Shown here: one piece after another, positions 1,952-12,901 of the stretch
Numbering within the stretch: position 1 is the stretch's first letter
How the letters are laid out: every line of letters begins with the position of its first letter
NCBI RefSeq assembly: GCF_012926615.1
Contig: NZ_JABBNU010000010.1
Span: 114,629-178,628, forward strand
Source: Marinigracilibium pacificum
GTDB lineage: Bacteria > Bacteroidota > Bacteroidia > Cytophagales > Cyclobacteriaceae
Length of the DNA: 64,000 nucleotides
Reading direction: 5' to 3'
The notes under the pieces: generated by a model
Told to the model about the DNA's origin: nothing
Database searches by the model: none
Seen by the model: the letters and a program-made list of their open reading frames with translations, nothing else
Position numbers and translations under genes: made by a program

Positions 1952-4099
1952 TTATTTTTTAATAAATCTCTTAACGATCAAATTCTCGTCAGTCATTATA
2001 TGCAAAGTATAAATCCCTCCTTTTAGTGATTGTACATCAAAACTAACAACTTTATCTATATCATAATTGTTAATTTTCTTGATCATTTTTCCTTCTAAAT
2101 TGTAGATTTCAATAGAAAACTCAGATTCTATAAATCCTGAAGGCAATTTCACAGATATTCGATCTAATACAGGGTTTGGATAAACAATAGTATTTTCAGT
2201 CAATAGATCATCAATACCTGTAATCAAATCATCATTTACATCTAATAAATTAATGGTAATTATTGCTTCATCGAAATTGAAGACTTCACCATCTGAAACC
2301 TCGATTGTTAAAGTAAATGAGGTAGTCTGCTCATAATCCAAGGCTTCAGGGTTATTTACTAATAACTGATTACCTTCAATTCTAAACGTACCATTGTCAT
2401 TTCCATTGGTTATCTGGAAAGTTAAATCATCATTTTCAGGATCTGAGGCAGATAATTCTCCAATTAAGGAATTAGCTTCGGAATTTTCATTTATTGTGAA
2501 AGTAGCATCTTCAATAGTAGGAACTTCATTAATATTTAATACGTCAATAGTAATAGTTTCCTCAATCGTATTAACTTCATCAGTTATCTCAACTACTAAA
2601 GTAAACTGAGTGCGAGATTCATAATCAATAGCAGCAGTATCAATAACTATAATTTTTCCCTGATTATCAATTGTAAATGAATTACCAATATTACCAGATT
2701 TAATTGTATAAGTCAGATAATCCCCTTCCGGATCTTTATAATAAAGGTACTCGACAATATGGTCAGGTAACGGATTTTCATAAACCTGAAATGCTGTAGG
2801 TCCATCAAGAACAGGAGCTTCATTTATATCTCTAACATTTATTTGAAATGTTCTAAAATAACTGGCACCTTTGTTATCAACAGTTTTCACATAAATATCA
2901 TAAACGAAATCATCTTCCCAATCTGTTGAAACATTGATTATCAATTGATCTCCATCGATAGTAAATAAAGAATTATCTTTATCCATTATACCATCACCCT
3001 CTACAAGAAAATATTCATGAGTATCTTCAACATCTGCATCAACAGTTGTGAATGTCCCAATTACTGCACCAACTGAATTATTCTCATCAATAACAGTATT
3101 TGAAAGATTGATATCAGTTGGAACTGAATTTTGAATTTCAAATGTATTTAAATCATTGTGATAAGTCGTGGTAAAGAATCCTGTATAACCAAAACCAAAA
3201 TAAGCTTTGGAATCTATAACAAATGAAATACCATTTGGCCTTGAATCAGAAGAGGCTATATTGAAAATATCTCCCTCGCTAGTAACATTATTGGTAAAAG
3301 GATCATATTTCACCACTGTTTTCTTATTACCATATGCAATATAAGCTTCTCCAGCCAGAACAAATGATGAGGCATCATTTATACCTAATGAATAATCTGC
3401 GAATACCTTTTCAGTCCATTTACCAGTAGACGGATCAAACTCTTGCACATCGCTGTATTGGAAAGTCCCCCCGTCATATGAAACTCCACCGATTAAGTAA
3501 CCTTTGCCGTTTAATGCAAAACCTGTTGCTGATTGTCTTGGATCACCAGAAAAAGCACTTGTTTGACTCCATTGGTTGGTTGCTGGATCATATACCCAAA
3601 AATCACCTAACGGCCCGTCAGTTCCTCTTCCGGTTCCGACATAGGCTTTACCATCAATTACAAAAGCAACTGCACTGTTACGAGCTACTCCACCAAAATC
3701 AGCGATTGAAGTCCATTCGTTATTTACAGGATCATACTTGTAAAAATCTTTAAGGTAATTTCTAGATTCATCTGAACCTAGCCCAACATAAGCATACCCA
3801 TCGATAACAAAACTTACAGCAGACCTTCTGGCTACACCAGGAAAATCGGTCATTTGAGTTGTGTTATTGGTTGTAGGATCAAATTTCCACAAATCCTTGT
3901 AGTAGGTAACACTTCCGCTATTACCCAATCCGATATATCCATATTCTCCTATTGAAAAAGAAATGGCATAGGCCCTACCGGCTATATCAGTAAGAGTTAC
4001 AGATTCAGCTTGTTGATTGGTATTTGAGGCAAACGTTTGGGTTGAAAAATAATTTAGTAAGAATGATTGAAATAAAAATAATAGTAAAAGTTTCTTCAT
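1952..4099 (-). CDS. T9SS-secreted protein with Kelch/galactose-oxidase-like beta-propeller repeats, cadherin-like repeats and Por/T9SS C-terminal sorting domain
   Basis: N-terminal signal peptide. Repeated G(Y/K)AYVG(L/T)G blades. DxNDxxP cadherin-like motifs (DINEAPV, NINEVPT, DVNDD). C-terminus IYPNPV...IYNLEGKMI typical of T9SS CTD. Confidence 0.7.
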   Translation of the reverse strand: MKKLLLLFLFQSFLLNYFSTQTFASNTNQQAESVTLTDIAGRAYAISFSIGEYGYIGLGNSGSVTYYKDLWKFDPTTNNTTQMTDFPGVARRSAVSFVIDGYAYVGLGSDESRNYLKDFYKYDPVNNEWTSIADFGGVARNSAVAFVIDGKAYVGTGRGTDGPLGDFWVYDPATNQWSQTSAFSGDPRQSATGFALNGKGYLIGGVSYDGGTFQYSDVQEFDPSTGKWTEKVFADYSLGINDASSFVLAGEAYIAYGNKKTVVKYDPFTNNVTSEGDIFNIASSDSRPNGISFVIDSKAYFGFGYTGFFTTTYHNDLNTFEIQNSVPTDINLSNTVIDENNSVGAVIGTFTTVDADVEDTHEYFLVEGDGIMDKDNSLFTIDGDQLIINVSTDWEDDFVYDIYVKTVDNKGASYFRTFQINVRDINEAPVLDGPTAFQVYENPLPDHIVEYLYYKDPEGDYLTYTIKSGNIGNSFTIDNQGKIIVIDTAAIDYESRTQFTLVVEITDEVNTIEETITIDVLNINEVPTIEDATFTINENSEANSLIGELSASDPENDDLTFQITNGNDNGTFRIEGNQLLVNNPEALDYEQTTSFTLTIEVSDGEVFNFDEAIITINLLDVNDDLITGIDDLLTENTIVYPNPVLDRISVKLPSGFIESEFSIEIYNLEGKMIKKINNYDIDKVVSFDVQSLKGGIYTLHIMTDENLIVKRFIKK

Positions 4100-4345: not shown

Positions 4346-5710
4346 ATGAAAATATATAATCTTTTAAGCTACTCTTGGTTAGCAATGGCCATCTTGTTTT
4401 CATGTAATCAACAAGAGGATAGTAATACTTCCAAAGAGAGCTCAAAAAATAAGGTTACAACAGAAAAAGTAACTATTGAAGATGTTGAAAGAGGTATCCG
4501 TGAAAATATTGCCGAACAAACTAAAGCTGGAAATGGCTATTTCAAATTCAGTAATGATACCACTGATTTTAGCCTCAAATTAGTTCGAGTCCATACTGAG
4601 TACTTATCAATTCTGGGTCCAAACGAGTTCTTTGCCTGCGTTGATCTGGCCACAGAAAACGGTGATGTGTATGATGTTGATTTCTTTCTTAAAGGATCTA
4701 AAGAAGACATGACGGTTACGCGTACTGACCTACATAAACTTAATGGCAAACCATATTATACATGGAAGCAATCTGAAGATAAAACCTGGAAGACTGTCCC
4801 GGTTGAGCAGGCTTCAAACAAGCTTCTAGGTGTAATTGAAGGACAGGACAACTTCTCTTTCCTATATGAAGCAACCATTCCTGAAATTGCTGATCAGGCT
4901 GAAATCTGGATTCCGGTTGCTAAAAGTGATGAGTTTCAAACCATCGAAATCAAAGCAATCGAAACTCCGGATGTTTATAAATTAATTAGCGATCCTGATT
5001 TTGATAATTCCATTTTATATATGCCTTTGGATGCCTCTCATAGCGGAAAGAAGATTACAATAGAATATCAGGTGACCAGACTGGAAAAAAGTGCGTATGA
5101 AGATTATGAAGATCCTTCAACTTATTTAAAGGCAAACAAGCTTCTTCCTATTGGTGACCGATTCTCGGTAATTGCTGAAGATGTTATTGAAAAAAAGAAT
5201 GCCTCTACCCCACTTACAAAGGCACGAGCCCTCTATGATTATGTAATTGAGGAAGTTCGATATGCCAAGCAAGGCACTTACGGTACCGGAGATGCTAATT
5301 ATGCCTGTGATTCAAAGTCTGGAAACTGTACTGAGTTCCATTCATTATTTATTTCATTAGCACGCTCCGCTGGTATTCCGGCAAGATTTGCGGTTGGTGC
5401 TGCAATTCCATCATCCAGAGTAGATGGCGGGGTTGACGGCTATCACTGCTGGGCTGAATTCTATGCTGAAGATAAATGGTGGCCTGTCGATATCAGTGAA
5501 GCTGATAAATATACAGCTCTCGCTACGTATTACTTTGGCCATCACCCGGCAAACAGAATTGAATTTAGTAAGGGAAGGGATATAAAACCTGAGATTATGC
5601 CTAATTCAGGACCAATTAACTTTCTTGCTTACCCCGTATTAGAAATAAAAGGTGAACCAGTGCGCGTTGACACTAAATTCACCTTTAACAGAAACAATTC
5701 CAGTATTTAA
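4346..5710 (+). CDS. transglutaminase-like (Cys-His-Asp core) lipoprotein
   Basis: Lipobox LFSC. GNCTEFHSLFISLARSAGIPAR (Cys) ... GYHCWAEFY (His) ... WWPVD (Asp), the transglutaminase-like cysteine protease signature. Confidence 0.7.
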   Translation: MKIYNLLSYSWLAMAILFSCNQQEDSNTSKESSKNKVTTEKVTIEDVERGIRENIAEQTKAGNGYFKFSNDTTDFSLKLVRVHTEYLSILGPNEFFACVDLATENGDVYDVDFFLKGSKEDMTVTRTDLHKLNGKPYYTWKQSEDKTWKTVPVEQASNKLLGVIEGQDNFSFLYEATIPEIADQAEIWIPVAKSDEFQTIEIKAIETPDVYKLISDPDFDNSILYMPLDASHSGKKITIEYQVTRLEKSAYEDYEDPSTYLKANKLLPIGDRFSVIAEDVIEKKNASTPLTKARALYDYVIEEVRYAKQGTYGTGDANYACDSKSGNCTEFHSLFISLARSAGIPARFAVGAAIPSSRVDGGVDGYHCWAEFYAEDKWWPVDISEADKYTALATYYFGHHPANRIEFSKGRDIKPEIMPNSGPINFLAYPVLEIKGEPVRVDTKFTFNRNNSSI

Positions 5711-5719
5711 AACCAGATA

Positions 5720-5995
5720 TTACTCTGAGTCTCCGTCATCATCTGATGATGGATGCTCACCTTCTGGGTGTTCTCCTTCAGGATGCTCACCTGCCGGATG
5801 TTCCTCATGAGTGCTATCTGATGAATGTTCGTGATCATCTGAATGATGCTCCGTTGACTCCTCAACTTGCTCTGTAACATCATCAGTATCGCTAGACTCT
5901 TCCTTAGCTGTTCCGCAAGAACCTAAAGTTATCACCATAAAAAATGCCATAGCCAAAAGACTAGTGCTTAATGATTTGAATTTTTTAGTAATCAT
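5720..5995 (-). CDS. small His/Glu-rich lipoprotein with tandem EHP(E/A)G repeats (putative periplasmic metal-binding)
   Basis: Lipobox LGSC. C-terminal EHPAGEHPEGEHPEGEHP repeats plus HHSDDHEHSSDSTHEEH. Confidence 0.5.
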   Translation of the reverse strand: MITKKFKSLSTSLLAMAFFMVITLGSCGTAKEESSDTDDVTEQVEESTEHHSDDHEHSSDSTHEEHPAGEHPEGEHPEGEHPSSDDDGDSE

Positions 5996-6120: not shown

Positions 6121-6825
6121 TTAACTAATCAGCTTATTGATTTGGCTTTTATAGGTCTGCCCGATTGGAATTTTAAACTCCCCAATAAAAATTTGGTTCC
6201 CATCAATTTTTTCTATCATTGGGACAGCTATCAAATACGATTTATGTACTCTCAAAAACTCAAATGGAGCTAATTCTGATTCATAATATGAAATTTTTTC
6301 ATGGCTGATAATCATATCATTATCCAGATGAATTTTAACATAATTACCATAAGCTTCGACAAATAATATGTCTTTTACATTTACTTGATGATACTTTTTA
6401 TCACTTTTAATAAACATCCTGGAATCACTATTCCTAATTTCTTCTGATATAACAGGAGATTTTTGTGAGGGTATATCTTTTGTTGCTTTATTTATTGCCT
6501 GAACCAACCTGTCAAAACTAAATGGCTTTAATAGGTAATCAACTACGTTTAATTCGTACCCTTCCAAAGCATATTCTTTATAGGCTGTAGTAACAATTAC
6601 CTTTGGTGGTGAGGATAATGTTCTTAAAAAATCAAAACCACTTAATTTAGGCATGTTAATATCTAAAAATATAATATCGACATGAACCCCACTATTCAAT
6701 AATTGAATAGCCTCCATTGCACTATAACAATGTCCTACAATTTTTAAATGAGGTAACATCCCACAAAATTCTTCTATCAGATCATGGGCTAATGGTTCGT
6801 CATCTATTATTAAATATTTTATCAC
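6121..6825 (-). CDS. LytTR-family response regulator (REC + LytTR DNA-binding domain)
   Basis: IIDDEPLA...DIIFLDINMP receiver motifs. C-terminal LytTR domain (VKIHLDNDMI...FLRVHKSYLIAV). Confidence 0.85.
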   Translation of the reverse strand: MIKYLIIDDEPLAHDLIEEFCGMLPHLKIVGHCYSAMEAIQLLNSGVHVDIIFLDINMPKLSGFDFLRTLSSPPKVIVTTAYKEYALEGYELNVVDYLLKPFSFDRLVQAINKATKDIPSQKSPVISEEIRNSDSRMFIKSDKKYHQVNVKDILFVEAYGNYVKIHLDNDMIISHEKISYYESELAPFEFLRVHKSYLIAVPMIEKIDGNQIFIGEFKIPIGQTYKSQINKLIS

Positions 6826-7952
6826 TCTTTAAAGATGGTTAATTCAGCTCGGTAAATATTATTCTCTGTCAAAGATTTTAATTCATGGTTATCCGGATAT
6901 ATCAACTTCAACCTTTTTCTCAAATTTTCTAATCCGATTCCTTGCTGTCGATTTCCATTTTCAGGTTTTTCAAAGTTGTTTTCAATAATAAACTTGAAAT
7001 ATTCAGTATTAGACTCTAATTCAAGGTTTATAAATGCGTCTTCTGAAATAGTTTCCACACCATGCTTAAATGCATTTTCAAGTAAAATAATAAATAACAA
7101 TGGTGCTATTTTATCCGGTGAATCAATATCAACATTAAAATTTATATCAACTTGCTTATGATATCTGATCTTATGAAGGTCAATATAGTTTTTTAAATAC
7201 TCTACTTCATCCTCTATGGGTACAAGCTCCTTTTTTCCCTCATAAATTGTATACCGCATCATATCTGATAATTTCAAAACTACTTCTGGTGCTTCATCTG
7301 ATTTTTTAACTGTAAGTGAATAAAGATTATTCAACGTATTGAAAAAGAAATGTGGGTTAACTTGTGATTTTAGTAAAGCCAGCTCTGCTTTTGTTTTTTC
7401 TGCCTTCAACGTTCGCAACCAGACCCATTGCTCATAAATCCATAATAATATAAATACCGGTATCGGAATCAACATATACATCAGTGCCAATTGCTTCTTT
7501 TCAATCTGGTAAACAGAAAAACTATCAGAAAACAACCTTACAAATGCCCAATATGAAAACGCTAATACATAAATCCCGATAATGTAGTATTTGTATTTCC
7601 CAAAAAAACTGGGAAATAACAGACTACTGACACCAATCCAGAAGGTAATCAATAAGAAAATTGTCACCGGATTATCCGGAATATCTATCCACGAATCGAT
7701 TATAATAAGAAAAACTAAAAGTAAACCAAATCCTAAAAATTTAAGCACAGCGGTCTTTCGCCTTTTTAATTGTTTAAAATGATATATCGGAAGGGAGATT
7801 ATTAACCACCACACCACAAATAAAATTATGTTTACTTCTACCTCATCAAAGTCTATAATAATAAATCCAATAGCCTCGAGAATGATAGCAAGTATAATGG
7901 TTACCAAAAGGCCATAAAAAAATGGGCGTACCTGATTTATCAATTTAGTCAT
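6822..7952 (-). CDS. membrane sensor histidine kinase (PF06580 His_kinase/LytS-like) partnered with LytTR regulator
   Basis: Six or seven N-terminal TM helices. NPHFFFNTLNNLYSL phospho-acceptor motif. HATPase C-terminus. 4-nt overlap (ATGA) with downstream RR. Confidence 0.8.
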   Translation of the reverse strand: MTKLINQVRPFFYGLLVTIILAIILEAIGFIIIDFDEVEVNIILFVVWWLIISLPIYHFKQLKRRKTAVLKFLGFGLLLVFLIIIDSWIDIPDNPVTIFLLITFWIGVSSLLFPSFFGKYKYYIIGIYVLAFSYWAFVRLFSDSFSVYQIEKKQLALMYMLIPIPVFILLWIYEQWVWLRTLKAEKTKAELALLKSQVNPHFFFNTLNNLYSLTVKKSDEAPEVVLKLSDMMRYTIYEGKKELVPIEDEVEYLKNYIDLHKIRYHKQVDINFNVDIDSPDKIAPLLFIILLENAFKHGVETISEDAFINLELESNTEYFKFIIENNFEKPENGNRQQGIGLENLRKRLKLIYPDNHELKSLTENNIYRAELTIFKE

Positions 7953-8158
7953 GCTTCAAAATTATGATTTAGGTAGGATTGACCTAATTATTTTGATGTA
8001 ATGGTTCATTTTTTATTTGAACTCATCATTTATTTAGTCAAATCCCTTTACACATCCTTTCCACTAATTACATCCTCAATCCATAGAGGTTGGTCATATT
8101 AATTTTTACTGATTCATCTCCCCTCCTAAATTCAATTTCAATCAAGCTAAAATTAATT
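7953..8158. promoter_or_regulatory. divergent intergenic region between sensor kinase operon and ABC/M1 operon (putative shared promoter/LytTR target region)
   Basis: About 200 bp AT-rich spacer between divergently transcribed operons. No motif verified. Confidence 0.3.
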
Positions 8159-9046
8159 ATGAACACTCTTGAAATATCAAATTTATCAAAAACCTACCCT
8201 AACGGTGTTAATGCTCTATCCAATATATCATTATCAATTTCAAATGGAATGTATGGTTTACTCGGAGCAAATGGAGCCGGTAAGTCTACTTTAATGCGTA
8301 CAATCGCCACTTTACAGCAGCCTAACTGCGGATCAATCAAATTTAATGGAATAAATAGTATCGATAACCCACAATCACTAAGGTCTCAATTAGGATACTT
8401 GCCCCAGGAATTTGGTGTTTACCCCAAAGTTTCCACTTTGAAATTACTTGACCATATAGCGATTTTAAAAGGTATACTTAATAAAAATGAGCGAAAACAA
8501 CAAATTGAGGCTTTGTTGGTAAAAACAAATTTATATCAACATCGAAAGAAATCTGTATTTACTTTTTCAGGCGGAATGAAACAACGATTTGGCATAGCCC
8601 AGGCCTTATTGGGAGATCCAAAACTTATTCTCGTTGATGAGCCAACTGCGGGTCTGGACCCCGAGGAAAGAAACCGGTTTTTAAACCTGTTAAGTGAAAT
8701 TGGAGAAAATGTCATAGTAATACTTTCGACACATATTGTTGAAGATGTTCACTCCTTATGTTCCAGGGTAGCAATATTAGATAATGGCGCTATTATCAAG
8801 GAAGGAAAGCCAAATGATTTGGTAAATGAATTAAATGGCAAAATCTGGATTAAAAAAATAGATAGATTTCAAAGGTCAGCACCCAATATAAATGGATTCA
8901 TTTCTTCAAGAGTTATAGGTGGTGAAACTTTGGTCAGGATAAATTCAAATTCATTTCCCGGATCTGATTACTCCCCGGTAGCCCCTTCCCTCGAAGATGT
9001 CTTTTTCACTACTAAAAACAATTCAAAGACACCTCAAAATCGATAA
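8159..9046 (+). CDS. ABC transporter ATP-binding protein (ABC-2 exporter type)
   Basis: Walker A GANGAGKST. Signature FSGGMKQR. Walker B ILVDEPTAGLD. H-loop. Start taken at MNTLEIS (ORF track start 8090 is likely too far upstream). Confidence 0.85.
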   Translation: MNTLEISNLSKTYPNGVNALSNISLSISNGMYGLLGANGAGKSTLMRTIATLQQPNCGSIKFNGINSIDNPQSLRSQLGYLPQEFGVYPKVSTLKLLDHIAILKGILNKNERKQQIEALLVKTNLYQHRKKSVFTFSGGMKQRFGIAQALLGDPKLILVDEPTAGLDPEERNRFLNLLSEIGENVIVILSTHIVEDVHSLCSRVAILDNGAIIKEGKPNDLVNELNGKIWIKKIDRFQRSAPNINGFISSRVIGGETLVRINSNSFPGSDYSPVAPSLEDVFFTTKNNSKTPQNR

Positions 9047-9049
9047 GAT

Positions 9050-12000
9050 ATGCTATCAAACCTGATTAAATTTGAATTTTATTACCAAAGAAAGCAATTA
9101 ACATTAGTTGTTTTATCTCTGGTATTCATGCTTATTGGTTTACGTTTGGGCAGCCAGGGATTTTCTCCTGCTGATGTAAACTATGATTCATTTTACCAAA
9201 TTGGTTATATAACCGGAATCATGACACTGGGAATCCCCTTTATAGTTATGTTCTTTACAATCAGCGGTATAATTAGAGATAAAAAGCACCATTTTGAACA
9301 AATCATTTATAGTACATCTGTAAATAAGTCCCAATATTTCTTCAGCAGATTATCAGGAATACTTGTTTTTAGCATATTATGTTTTAGTCCATTTCTGATT
9401 GGCTTTTATCTGGGCACATTTTACCCTGGCTTAGATCCTGAAAAAATTTCCGGTTTCAATTTCTATAGCTATTTCAGCAATTGGTTCATTTTTATAATTC
9501 CGAATGTATTCATTTGCACTGCATTTATATTTACTGTATCACTTTTAAGCAAAAATGCTTTAGCTACATATGTAACAGGAATTTTGATCTATGCTATTTA
9601 TATGATGAGCTCATTAGTATTGAATTCACCAATAATGGCCCAATCAATACCTTCAACTCCTGAAGGACTCATGATTGCATCATTGGCTGATCCGTTTGGT
9701 CTGGCTGCCTTCTTTGAACAAACTCAATATTGGACTCCTTTTCAAAAAAATAATCAACCGATACAGTTCGTAGGATTCTTATTATGGAACAGAGTGATCT
9801 GGTTACTCATATCCATTGTGATTCTATATGTGGGCTACAATTATTTCTCATTTCGAAAAATCAATAAGAAATCTAAAAGAAATAAAATCAAAACAGAGCC
9901 AATTCCAAGTGTATCTTATAATTCGGTTTCACCAAACCAGTCGTTAATGATGAAATTTCTGATTATGAAATCTTTAATCAAATCAGATTTAAGCTTCATT
10001 TTCAGAAACCTGCCATTTATAGGAATTATGATAATCTGGGTAACTATGGTGATCGCAGAAAACTATGCCAGAATTGTTGATGGAGGGGAATATAACAATA
10101 GTATGTACCCAACAACTAGTCTTTTAATTGGTCATTTCACAAACATCCTGACATTTATATCACTTATATTGATCGTTTTTTATAGTGGAGAATTAGCCTG
10201 GAGAAATAAGGAAAGCAAAATAAATGAAATTATTGATTCAACACCTGTTTCAAACTATCAGATATTCATTTCCAAGCTTATAGTCTTAATAAGCCTGCCT
10301 TTTTCATTAATTCTTTCAGGAATAATCTTATCAATTTGCTTTCAATTATATCTGGGTTTTTATGAATTTAAATTGCCCCTTTATCTTTCAACATTTTATT
10401 TTTATGGTTTAAGACTATTATTCTATTGTTTTTTGGCGATATTTATAACGCAGTTAGTGTCAAAAAAATATCTGGCAATCGGAATCACAGCTGTTTTAAT
10501 AATACTTTTTGGAAGTTTTCCTGAGTACATAGGTATTAATACTCCACTTTTAAAGCTAGGTCTGGCCCCTATACCATCATATACCAATTTAAATGGCTTT
10601 AGTATTTCCTCCGAAGCTTTTCATTATTATGCCTGGTACTGGATATCTTTTGGATTACTCCTGTCAATTATTGCGTTTCAATTATTAAACCGAGGATATT
10701 CATCTTTAAAATTCCGGTTTTCGAGTATCAAATGGAATAAAAATCGACGGGTATTTAGCATTCTGGTAATAATTAGCTTTGTGGCCTCTGCAACAACAAT
10801 TCACTATCAGGTAAATATCAAGAACAAATACCTTTCAGTTACTGACATACTTGATCGAAAGGAACAGTATGAAAGAAAATTTAAACAATACGACAGCTTG
10901 AAAAGATTGAATCATCAGTCATGGAAAACAGTTATTGACCTGTACCCTACCGAACATCGTTATTCCGTAAAAGCCAAACATCAATTACAAAATAAGAATG
11001 AAGTCCCGGTTTACAAGGCTTTTATTAACGAACGCACAAAACTTTCTCATCTGGAGATTGAAAGAGGTTTGATTACCGATTATGATTCAATCCATGGCAC
11101 CTACATAATAGAGTTCAGGGATGGAATTTTACCTGGCGAAATAATTACCATGGAATATGCTTTGGAAAAAACATCCACTGGTTTCGATCCTGATAGATCA
11201 ATAATTGAAAATGGTAGCTACATCACTTTCAGGGATTTTGAACTAATGCTAGGATATAGTAGTTCCAAAGAAATAGAAAATGCCTTTGAACGAAAAAAGC
11301 GAGGTTTACCAGCAAAATTGACTATCCATGGAGATGAGCATCTTATAACCAGTGAGAGTAATGTTGAAAAAATCCCTTTTGAAACAATTATTTCTACTGA
11401 GGATGATCAAACAGCTATTGGCCCCGGAGATTTAATTAATCAATGGACAAGCAATGGAAGAAATTATTATCAATATAAAACTCCAGTTAAAGTAATTCCA
11501 ACTGTAGGTTATTTTTCAGCTAGGTATGGTTCACAAATGGATAATCACAGGGGAATTTCTATCGAACTATTTTATCATCCTGAACATGTCTATAATATTG
11601 ACCTTATTGAAGAAAGCGTAAAGCATACATTGGATTATTGCCTTGATAATTTTGGTCCTTACCCTTTTGATCATATTAGAATTGCCGAAATACCGGGACA
11701 TTGGCCTTTTGGTGGATTTAGCCATCCTGGAACAATCAGTATGGTTGAGGATCGCCTGTATTTAGTTGATGTCAGAAATACAGAGACCTTCAATCTGGTA
11801 GCCAAACGTACAATTCATGAGGTGGCTCATCAATGGTGGGGAGGTATTTTGACACCTAAAATTGTTGAGGGAGGTTCAATTTTCGTAGAAGGTTTTGCAA
11901 AATATACTGAGTCGGTAGTTATAGAAAAAATGTATGGCAAAGGAGCAAGCTGGCAGATTGCAAAAACAGCAAATGACACTTATTTCAAAGGTAGAGCTTA

Positions 12001-12601
12001 TTCAACTAAACCAGAGCCTCCAATTTATCTGGAAAACAATGAATCTTATCTGGCTTATGGTAAGCATTACACTGTCTTGATGGCAGTCAGAGAATTAATT
12101 GGTGAAAATAAGGTTAACCAGGCGATGAAAACTTTAATTGACAGACATCGAAATAATAATGGCCTTAATTTGATATCAATTGAATTAATCGATGAACTTT
12201 ATAAAGTCACTCCTTCAGAATATCATAGTTTAATAGATGACTGGTTCAAAAAGACAATCCGATATGATCTCTCTATAAAAAGTTCAGATGTAAATAAACT
12301 TTCTGATGGAAGATATGAAGTCACTATAGACGTTTCTGCACATCGATATGAAACATTAGATACCGGAGAAGAAAAGAAGATAAAAATCAGCGAACCAATT
12401 CCGGTTGGTTTATTCACTAAACACCCTTCATTGGTGTCAAACGATCAGGATATCTTATATTTTGAGTCCGAAACAATTATTGAAGGTGAGCAGAAAATGA
12501 AGATAATTGTTAATGACAGGCCTGAATTCATATCTATTGATCCGTATGGAGCACGATCTGACAAAAACATGTTTGATAATTTAATAAAAGTATCAGAATA
12601 G
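9050..12601 (+). CDS. ABC-2 type permease (~13 TM) fused to C-terminal M1-family zinc aminopeptidase domain
   Basis: N-terminal ~590 aa polytopic membrane region. C-terminal ~600 aa carries HEVAHQWWG (HExxH) followed by VEGFAKYTE, the M1/gluzincin zinc-ligand pattern. 4-nt gap to ABC ATPase indicates an operon. Confidence 0.75.
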   Translation: MLSNLIKFEFYYQRKQLTLVVLSLVFMLIGLRLGSQGFSPADVNYDSFYQIGYITGIMTLGIPFIVMFFTISGIIRDKKHHFEQIIYSTSVNKSQYFFSRLSGILVFSILCFSPFLIGFYLGTFYPGLDPEKISGFNFYSYFSNWFIFIIPNVFICTAFIFTVSLLSKNALATYVTGILIYAIYMMSSLVLNSPIMAQSIPSTPEGLMIASLADPFGLAAFFEQTQYWTPFQKNNQPIQFVGFLLWNRVIWLLISIVILYVGYNYFSFRKINKKSKRNKIKTEPIPSVSYNSVSPNQSLMMKFLIMKSLIKSDLSFIFRNLPFIGIMIIWVTMVIAENYARIVDGGEYNNSMYPTTSLLIGHFTNILTFISLILIVFYSGELAWRNKESKINEIIDSTPVSNYQIFISKLIVLISLPFSLILSGIILSICFQLYLGFYEFKLPLYLSTFYFYGLRLLFYCFLAIFITQLVSKKYLAIGITAVLIILFGSFPEYIGINTPLLKLGLAPIPSYTNLNGFSISSEAFHYYAWYWISFGLLLSIIAFQLLNRGYSSLKFRFSSIKWNKNRRVFSILVIISFVASATTIHYQVNIKNKYLSVTDILDRKEQYERKFKQYDSLKRLNHQSWKTVIDLYPTEHRYSVKAKHQLQNKNEVPVYKAFINERTKLSHLEIERGLITDYDSIHGTYIIEFRDGILPGEIITMEYALEKTSTGFDPDRSIIENGSYITFRDFELMLGYSSSKEIENAFERKKRGLPAKLTIHGDEHLITSESNVEKIPFETIISTEDDQTAIGPGDLINQWTSNGRNYYQYKTPVKVIPTVGYFSARYGSQMDNHRGISIELFYHPEHVYNIDLIEESVKHTLDYCLDNFGPYPFDHIRIAEIPGHWPFGGFSHPGTISMVEDRLYLVDVRNTETFNLVAKRTIHEVAHQWWGGILTPKIVEGGSIFVEGFAKYTESVVIEKMYGKGASWQIAKTANDTYFKGRAYSTKPEPPIYLENNESYLAYGKHYTVLMAVRELIGENKVNQAMKTLIDRHRNNNGLNLISIELIDELYKVTPSEYHSLIDDWFKKTIRYDLSIKSSDVNKLSDGRYEVTIDVSAHRYETLDTGEEKKIKISEPIPVGLFTKHPSLVSNDQDILYFESETIIEGEQKMKIIVNDRPEFISIDPYGARSDKNMFDNLIKVSE

Positions 12602-12618: not shown

Positions 12619-12652
12619 CTAAGGCATCATTTGGGTGCCTTAGTTAGTTTTA
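12619..12652. terminator. rho-independent terminator (convergent gene pair)
   Basis: Hairpin CTAAGGCA-tcatttggg-TGCCTTAG followed by a T-rich tract. Confidence 0.5.
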
Positions 12653-12901
12653 CCCAATTCTAGACTCAGAATACAGGTCATATGCTGCAATTAATGACTC
12701 CCTTCCGGTAGATTCCCCATAAGGTTCATACTGGCTAATTTTATCTCTTGATTCAGCATATACTGGCTTATAAACCATGTCAGCTTCATCCCAGATGATA
12801 AGCATGAAATGATAACTCAGTTTGCTTAAACGGCCTTCTTCCAACCAGTTATCAAATTGTTCTTCATCAAGTGATTTTGGAAACCCCGCACCGTCAAACA
12901 T
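12650..12901 (-). CDS. hypothetical small protein
   Basis: 83-aa ORF with no recognisable motif. Confidence 0.35.
   Translation of the reverse strand: MFDGAGFPKSLDEEQFDNWLEEGRLSKLSYHFMLIIWDEADMVYKPVYAESRDKISQYEPYGESTGRESLIAAYDLYSESRIG

Follow-up and report, generated by a model that had tools for sequence, protein, structure and literature searches.

A tandem ABC-2 permease fused to a periplasmic M1-fold zinc peptidase, encoded opposite a LytTR two-component system in Marinigracilibium pacificum

The 64,000-nucleotide stretch of Marinigracilibium pacificum DNA analysed here (contig NZ_JABBNU010000010.1, positions 114,629 to 178,628; hereafter the window) carries a gene whose product joins an ATP-binding cassette (ABC) permease of the ABC-2 type to an M1-fold zinc metallopeptidase on the outer side of the membrane, next to a gene for an ABC ATPase and opposite an operon encoding a histidine kinase and a LytTR response regulator (Table 1). 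Judged from its sequence, the peptidase domain is an M1-fold zinc peptidase with intact catalytic residues that has been kept under strong selection. The function that we tentatively favour, rating its chances at somewhat below even, is that of a machine which uses ATP to extract or expel peptides associated with the membrane and cleaves them in the process; in Bacteroidota a membrane or envelope signal, relayed by the LytTR system, would induce it. Proteins of this family are already named in the databases and the architecture is therefore not new to them; the family is nevertheless functionally unexplored, mislabelled as regards exopeptidase features, and unlike any characterised combination of an ABC transporter and a peptidase.

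The Pfam model Peptidase_M1 (PF01433) matches residues 856–1065 of the fusion protein with 58 bits, above its gathering cutoff of 27.7, and the AlphaFold model has the M1 fold, which together place the domain in the M1 family. In that model a linker helix (residues 597–614) leads into a beta domain I (621–842), a thermolysin-like catalytic domain II (850–1067) and a beta-sandwich domain III (1070–1180), after which the chain ends at residue 1183. Foldseek matched the peptidase to IRAP, ERAP1/2, PepN and EryP over ~600 columns, with E values of about 1e-19. The motif HEVAHQWWG is found at residue 923 and EGFAKY at residue 947; the zinc-site residues align with the motifs of ERAP1/2 and PepN, the zinc-ligand spacing (HExxH-X19-E) is one residue longer than the usual X18, and Y1003, in the position of the catalytic tyrosine that stabilises the transition state in M1 enzymes, aligns with the tyrosine of ‘SYDKG’ in ERAP1 and ‘VYEKG’ in PepN. 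Residues H923, E924, H927, Q928, W929, W930, E947, Y952, Y1003 and K1005 are invariant in 79/79 diverse family sequences, and HExxH, E947 and Tyr1003 are invariant also in 42 representatives at 24–44% identity. Such invariance of the catalytic residues makes it highly improbable that the M1 domain is a pseudo-peptidase serving as a non-catalytic binding module.

The initial annotation, which had described an M1 aminopeptidase and made a conserved GAMEN/HExxH-E fold the test of that claim, was right about the family and the zinc site; GAMEN was not found. In classical M1 aminopeptidases the glutamate of the GXMEN motif holds the free N-terminus (the alpha-amino group) of the substrate. This motif is absent here, G261-A-M-E-N of Escherichia coli PepN aligning with G889-F-S-H-P, and GAMEN of ERAP1 with the same GFSHP, so that the N-terminus-binding glutamate (E264 in PepN, and its equivalent in ERAP1) corresponds to His892 in this protein and to phenylalanine in most members. 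The slot holds no acidic residue in any of the 79 family members; its sequence is G-[FQMA]-A-x-[PS] among members of the close clade and AQSF[PA] in the majority of the family. Also missing is domain IV, the helical lid that caps the active site of M1 aminopeptidases: in the AlphaFold model only the beta-sandwich, which aligns to PepN domain III, follows the catalytic domain, and the family profile aligns to E. coli PepN residues 146–501, i.e. part of domain I and domains II and III, a range that begins beyond the domain I glutamate E121. Because both the GXMEN glutamate and lid domain IV are missing, the name ‘aminopeptidase’ is unproven, and because the N-terminal anchor is missing, endoproteolysis or tolerance of blocked N-termini is possible. 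A further set of charged or polar periplasmic residues is invariant (R748, Q787, E880, E900, Y978, R982, E989 and K1005), some of which may replace the GXMEN glutamate or bind the substrate carboxylate.

The RefSeq label of the protein, and the frequent role of M1 enzymes in peptide catabolism, would fit a nutritional periplasmic aminopeptidase that is membrane-anchored by chance, with the ABC-2 part being an unrelated exporter or a mere anchor. We consider this very unlikely, as one helix would be enough for an anchor whereas 12 more helices, the ATPase motifs and the coupling loops are kept in ~1000 clusters, and as the glutamate of classical aminopeptidases is the very residue that has gone.

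Hydropathy analysis gave 13 hydrophobic transmembrane (TM) helices, concordant with those of the AlphaFold model of the whole fusion protein (pLDDT 83, pTM 0.78), and the numbers of lysine and arginine residues in successive loops alternate (3/0/5/1/1/1/11/1/4/1/2/1/7), a pattern that fits an N-terminus inside and residues 589–1183 outside, and therefore periplasmic, the organism being diderm. The hydropathy peak of TM13 lies at residues 568–586, preceded by the loop with 7 lysine or arginine residues. Pfam recognised ABC2_membrane_3 at residues 52–260 (34.1 bits, above the cutoff of 31.6) and, under its cutoff of 27, ABC2_membrane_4 at residues 326–485 (21.8 bits); among NCBIfam models none is specific to the fusion, a weak match to pepN (36.6 bits) being the only one. 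The earlier proposal of some 13 helices of ABC-2 permease type with the peptidase in the periplasm is thus borne out by Pfam, hydropathy, loop charges and AlphaFold alike.

The two membrane halves are homologous to each other (residues 2–271 against 306–551, hhalign probability 97.6%, E 4e-12), and each has the layout of an ABC-2 permease, with six TM helices, the N-terminus inside and an outer TM5–TM6 connection that contains short helices. The membrane part is a type V (ABC-2) fold in which one polypeptide provides both membrane domains. Conservation in this part peaks in the periplasmic TM5–TM6 loop, which lies on the peptidase side of the membrane, at D214, P215, F216, W228 and N234 (D214-P-F-G...W228...N234). 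Both halves also possess a conserved cytoplasmic loop behind their second helix, R76-D77...E-I...T-P in the first and W384-R-x-[KR]...E-I-I-D-[AS]-T-P in the second; these loops would be the coupling elements for two ATPase copies, which presumably serve the single tandem permease.

The ATPase itself was identified by ABC_tran (E 5e-30), with DrrA and GldA as the best NCBIfam models, both under cutoff, and its translation has an intact Walker A (GANGAGKST), signature (FSGGMKQR), Walker B (LILVDEPT) and H-loop (STH). All gene positions proposed at the outset were confirmed from the list of open reading frames (ORFs), and the cognate ATPase does lie directly upstream of the fusion gene, the distance being 3 nt from the ATPase stop rather than the 4 nt first stated; the regulator and kinase genes overlap by 4 nt. 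The mechanical ORF of the ATPase begins at a TTG at 8090 and would encode 318 aa, its 23 codons beyond ATG 8159 overlapping the conserved promoter region; the start is ATG 8159 and not TTG 8090, because the orthologous regions align up to ATG 8159.

Fusion of the two parts is a regular property of the family. An identical protein is held by NCBI (P0001 in our list, ‘M1 family aminopeptidase [Marinigracilibium pacificum]’), its homologues number more than 340, the 120 listed being 1182–1192 aa long and aligning over 99–100% of their length, and many relatives at 45–67% identity already bear the RefSeq/UniRef name ‘ABC transporter permease/M1 family aminopeptidase’. Counting one genome per species, at least 402 species have collinear full-length relatives, matched from residue 1 to about 1180, in Bacteroidota, Balneolaceae, Acidobacteriota, Gemmatimonadota, Alpha-, Beta- and Gammaproteobacteria, Myxococcota and Cloacimonadota. 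That the fusion might be an assembly or frameshift artefact joining two genes, which the initial annotation had named as a refutation of its claim, is refuted by the identical NCBI protein, the homologues and the collinear species, and the chance of it is vanishingly small. When the periplasmic domain (residues 589–1183) was compared with 1.84 billion representatives, 978 clusters at 50% identity matched with E <= 1e-30, and the best matches were nearly all proteins of about 1180–1210 aa matched at residues about 590–1190; since the domain occurs almost only inside proteins of ~1190 aa, this M1 subfamily is normally fused. A few relatives (P0140, P0153, P0161, P0163, P0192 and P0253) are ~600–660 aa long and match the periplasmic domain from near their N-terminus; they could be stand-alone single-anchor peptidases, i.e. 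split genes, or fragments from short contigs. With 978 clusters over many phyla and a standard RefSeq name, the architecture can no longer be called uncommon, as it had been; its description as functionally uncharacterised appears to hold, no paper on the family having been found.

Genomic context was analysed in 80 loci, in 79 of which ATPase adjacency could be scored: in 76 of these the fusion gene is immediately preceded by the ATPase gene. In one locus (L034:713-5307) the order is swapped and the ATPase gene lies 3' of the fusion gene. Antisense ORFs in high-GC genomes were rejected as artefacts. These loci bear on the idea that an endogenous peptide or protein is exported and then trimmed by the fused peptidase as it emerges, in the manner of the peptidase-containing ABC transporters (PCATs) and of the M1 lanthipeptide peptidases. 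The peptidase would indeed be tethered at the exit side, and one of the structural matches (7v9p, 7v9n) is EryP, a lanthipeptide peptidase of the M1 family; this possibility is weakened by the lack of any conserved precursor or biosynthetic gene beside the pair in the 80 loci, drawn from many phyla, and by an operon that consists of the ATPase gene and the fusion gene only, and we hold export with maturation to be quite unlikely.

The divergent operon has a narrower distribution than the ABC operon. The close clade (members at >=34% identity) consists of Flavobacteriaceae, Cytophagales, Saprospiraceae and Balneolaceae, and in 17/19 of its members the ABC operon is faced by a divergently transcribed orthologous kinase and regulator (kinase E 1e-104 to 1e-139); in all, such genes adjoin the ABC operon in about 20 of the genome loci. 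Pedobacter, Larkinella, Chitinophaga and one Balneolaceae genome have a more distant kinase/regulator pair; of the 80 genome loci, those from Proteobacteria, Acidobacteriota and many further Bacteroidota lack such a pair. LytTR control, which had been attributed to the system without qualification, therefore stands as a dedicated divergent partnership in Bacteroidota and Balneolaceae and falls as a general property.

In the regulator, Response_reg (E 2e-20) and LytTR (E 5e-18) were recognised by Pfam, and NCBIfam scores remain under the cutoffs for BtsR (116 against 246 bits) and LytR (107 against 375 bits). In the kinase, six TM helices joined by loops of at most 12 residues (hydropathy) are followed by His_kinase PF06580 (94 bits, E 6e-27) and an ATPase domain (HATPase_c_5, weak), and its translation contains the motifs NPHF, ENAFKHG and GIGLENL. 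A receiver plus LytTR regulator with a PF06580 kinase makes the pair one of LytS/LytTR type; on sequence comparison it belongs to the same superfamily as the LytS/BtsS systems, in a different subfamily, and its members are not orthologues of theirs. Neither a periplasmic sensor or peptide-binding domain nor a 5TMR-LYT or GAF domain was detected in the kinase by Pfam scan and hydropathy, and a kinase with no external domain is not a peptide sensor of the AgrC or ComD type. The original term ‘peptide-sensing-type’ for the two-component system does not survive this result, the kinase being of the LytS/BtsS type with short loops.

The reciprocal question, what lies opposite this kinase elsewhere, was put to 80 metagenome loci (L083–L162) retrieved with the window kinase as the query at 46–58% identity, ten of which, mostly with short upstream sequence, have no recognisable gene upstream of the kinase, leaving 70 to be sorted. 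The regulator gene follows the kinase gene in 76/76 loci with room for it. Divergent from the kinase are the ATPase gene, with the fusion gene where the contig allows (47/70); a PF00144 serine hydrolase gene followed by the ATPase and fusion genes (5/70); a PF00144 gene alone, often at the contig end (9/70); an S41 peptidase gene, usually with a WD40 gene (6/70); and a gene for a 646-aa TPR protein (3/70). The ATPase gene is divergent from the kinase in 52 of the 70 whether or not the fusion gene is in view. Two genome loci have a comparable arrangement: on the ABC strand the promoter region is followed by a PF00144 gene (L004, 4189–5859) or an S41 peptidase gene (L013, 4279–5538), and the ATPase gene comes after it. 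Judged by these divergent partners, the kinase/regulator clade would control periplasmic hydrolases, mostly the ABC–M1 machine; hydrolysis of peptides in the envelope is then the likely shared output of the clade, and marine Bacteroidota may have a regulon of periplasmic hydrolases under LytTR control. The PF00144 partners are ‘beta-lactamase’-family serine hydrolases with DUF3471.

The 206-bp control region between the two operons aligns almost gap-free with 11 orthologous intergenic regions whose fusion proteins are 40–51% identical. At its left end a -7-like box, CAAAATTA (7957–7964), abuts the kinase start codon and reads TAATTTTG on the minus strand, which we take to fit the Bacteroidota -7 consensus TAnnTTTG. 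The box is only 4 nt from the kinase start codon, a spacing kept in the 11 orthologous regions, and the kinase/regulator transcript may have little or no leader. A second -7-like box, TAAATTCA, lies at 8127–8134, 24 nt before the ATPase ATG; a candidate -7 box of the ABC promoter at about 8085–8094 was rejected, the aligned conserved box being that at 8127–8134. Between the two promoters there are direct repeats with a 22-bp period, clear at 7991–8012 and 8013–8034 and with a weaker third unit at 8035–8056 (consensus TTGAyaAACA..T.TTTT for unit 1 and A.gAACA.......TTTTTT for unit 2). LytTR-type operators typically have tandem repeats spaced by two turns of the helix, and from their sequence and placement the repeats at 7991–8056 are candidates for such operators. 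Counts from a scan for sigma-70 promoters and terminators, which is ill-suited to Bacteroidota, did not exceed shuffle expectation.

Taking these observations together with the membrane part, the mechanism that we favour would run as follows. The ATPase cycle would extract hydrophobic or amphipathic peptides from the inner membrane, or expel them from it, candidates being membrane-active antimicrobial peptides, lipopeptides and envelope-derived peptides, and the transporter would hand them to the tethered peptidase with its open cleft, whose cleavage would make their removal irreversible. In Bacteroidota the kinase, having no external sensor, would read a membrane or envelope signal, possibly via the transporter itself, and the regulator would then activate both divergent promoters. 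By analogy, the peptide export of PmtCD, the tandem efflux pump containing Rv1217c and the NatK/NatR–NatAB module would lend support to this proposal.

A number of results weigh against it. For one membrane half the best single match among structures is NosY, and the NosY machine is thought to drive a periplasmic partner and not to pump a solute. All-against-all ORF clustering of the 80 genome loci left the ATPase as the one neighbour kept across clades, which gives no hint of a substrate. Most members have no linked regulator, and a housekeeping role fits at least as well as an inducible defence. The absence of the GXMEN glutamate is not proof that aminopeptidase activity has been lost, as E880 or E900 might substitute for it. 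Literature searches returned no paper on the fusion or on any member of the family, and PADLOC returned nothing for the fusion protein. It was likewise silent on the kinase and the regulator, and gave generic ATPase matches only for the ATPase; with no system matched, an anti-phage defence system was rejected.

The resemblance to NosY leads to an alternative in which nothing crosses the membrane: by analogy with NosDFY and with FtsEX-type systems and their periplasmic partners, ATP binding and hydrolysis would shift the peptidase on its tether or control access to its open cleft, with the membrane part in the place of lid domain IV. Against this, the similarity to true efflux pumps (Rv1217c, ABCG2 and PmtD) is equally strong, and the two-domain M1 enzyme 6a8z has an M1 fold without domain IV and thus without an external gate; that enzyme is active. 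We regard such mechanotransmission as unlikely. Peptide extraction with cleavage, the proposal set out above, can also be stated more boldly, as a new class of ATP-powered ‘extract-and-destroy’ envelope machine in which a type V body would feed membrane-embedded peptides (antimicrobial peptides, lipopeptides, or N-blocked ones such as signal-peptide remnants) to a lidless, anchor-less M1 endopeptidase or to an exopeptidase tolerant of blocked N-termini, while the Bacteroidota kinase would sense flux through the transporter and tune a small hydrolase regulon (M1–ABC, PF00144 and S41); in this full form we find it rather doubtful.

Considering how the fusion protein compares with systems of known function, it is set apart from the classical M1 aminopeptidases (E. 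coli PepN, ERAP1/2, IRAP and LTA4H) and the Deinococcus radiodurans enzyme 6a8z by GFSHP (AQSFP in most of the family) in place of GXMEN, by its X19 rather than X18 spacing, by its 13-TM ABC-2 tether and by its periplasmic location. On the transporter side one of the closest solved structures is that of Rv1217c of the Rv1217c–Rv1218c efflux pump (PDB 8k1m–8k1p), likewise a single polypeptide with two ABC-2 halves, to which residues 1–600 of the model were aligned by Foldseek over 579–585 columns; Rv1217c has neither a 13th helix nor a peptidase domain, and shares ~13% sequence identity with the fusion protein. The membrane part also resembles NosY of NosDFY and the permease of PmtCD, an exporter of phenol-soluble modulins, whereas NosY and PmtD are 6-TM homodimers whose partners are separate proteins and which have no peptidase.

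A peptidase covalently joined to an ABC transporter is also found in the PCATs, through their C39 peptidase domain. In those proteins an N-terminal cytoplasmic cysteine peptidase is carried by a type IV exporter with the ATPase fused, whereas here a C-terminal periplasmic zinc enzyme of the M1 family is carried by a type V permease with the ATPase encoded by a separate gene; a Pfam search of the fusion protein gave no match to a C39 peptidase domain. For the regulatory arrangement there is a precedent in Bacillus subtilis NatK/NatR, which is assigned to the LytTR family and controls the ABC-2 pump NatAB (Table 7 of PMC6530121; Ogura 2007 as cited in PMC3498285). That module and the Bce-type modules for antimicrobial peptides share with the present locus a two-component system beside an ABC pump and a kinase without an external sensor domain, although NatAB has no peptidase and is described as a sodium extrusion pump. 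The Bce modules in turn have FtsX-type permeases and OmpR-type regulators.

The family is very large and is called ‘aminopeptidase’ despite missing the defining motif and the lid domain. If its transporter and peptidase are mechanistically coupled, it would be the first case of an ABC-2 pump with a zinc peptidase joined to its outer face, and would represent a new route of peptide detoxification or clearance in the Gram-negative envelope. The LytTR link, in a kinase/regulator clade shared with periplasmic serine hydrolases and S41 peptidases, also gives an experimentally accessible starting point for the many uncharacterised LytTR systems of Bacteroidota.

Table 1. Features of the fusion locus and its surroundings, in window coordinates (aa, amino acids; TM, transmembrane helix)
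Feature	Position	Strand	Remarks
His-rich lipoprotein	5720-5995	-	91 aa; outside the system
Response regulator	6121-6825	-	234 aa; Response_reg + LytTR (Pfam)
Histidine kinase	6822-7952	-	376 aa; PF06580 His_kinase
Divergent control region	7953-8158	.	206 bp; common to both operons
ABC ATPase	8159-9046	+	295 aa from ATG; ABC_tran
Fusion gene	9050-12601	+	1183 aa; ABC-2 permease + M1 peptidase
First ABC-2 membrane half	9050-9850	+	TM1-6, residues 1-267; ABC2_membrane_3, hydropathy, AlphaFold helices
Second ABC-2 membrane half	9947-10687	+	TM7-12, residues 300-546; homologous to first half
13th TM helix	10739-10822	+	Residues 564-591 (AlphaFold); brings the chain to the periplasm
Periplasmic M1-fold zinc metallopeptidase	10823-12601	+	Residues 592-1183, stop codon included
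Zinc site H923-E-x-x-H927...E947	11816-11890	+	Within the peptidase domain

The acidic, His-rich lipoprotein, which has a lipobox (LGSC) and EHPEGEHPEGEHP repeats and is encoded 125 nt downstream of the regulator gene, had been counted as part of the kinase/regulator operon. The ORF is real; no homologue of it was found in the 80 related genome loci, and in Mangrovivirga, the closest relative (fusion protein 67% identical), the homologue (L081:2047-2319) adjoins a transglutaminase-like gene, with two unrelated genes (an AMP-binding gene and a DUF2807 gene) between it and the regulator, on which grounds its membership of the operon was rejected. In both Marinigracilibium and Mangrovivirga the lipoprotein gene lies beside one for a transglutaminase-core protein (4346–5710, plus strand, in the window; both genes within L081:675-2319), of which the lipoprotein may be a metal-binding partner. 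A weak NCBIfam match of the lipoprotein, ‘acidic lipoprotein LytA’, scored 19.9 bits against a cutoff of 110.

On the other side of the system, an 83-aa ORF with no Pfam match (12650–12901, minus strand) converges on the fusion gene; at the matching position Mangrovivirga has two 83-aa genes (L081:11608-12243), and the other related loci have none. Further upstream in the window, a minus-strand gene (1952–4099) encodes a 715-aa secreted protein in whose translation Kelch-like and cadherin-like repeats can be recognised by eye, as can a C-terminal tail resembling a type IX secretion sorting signal.

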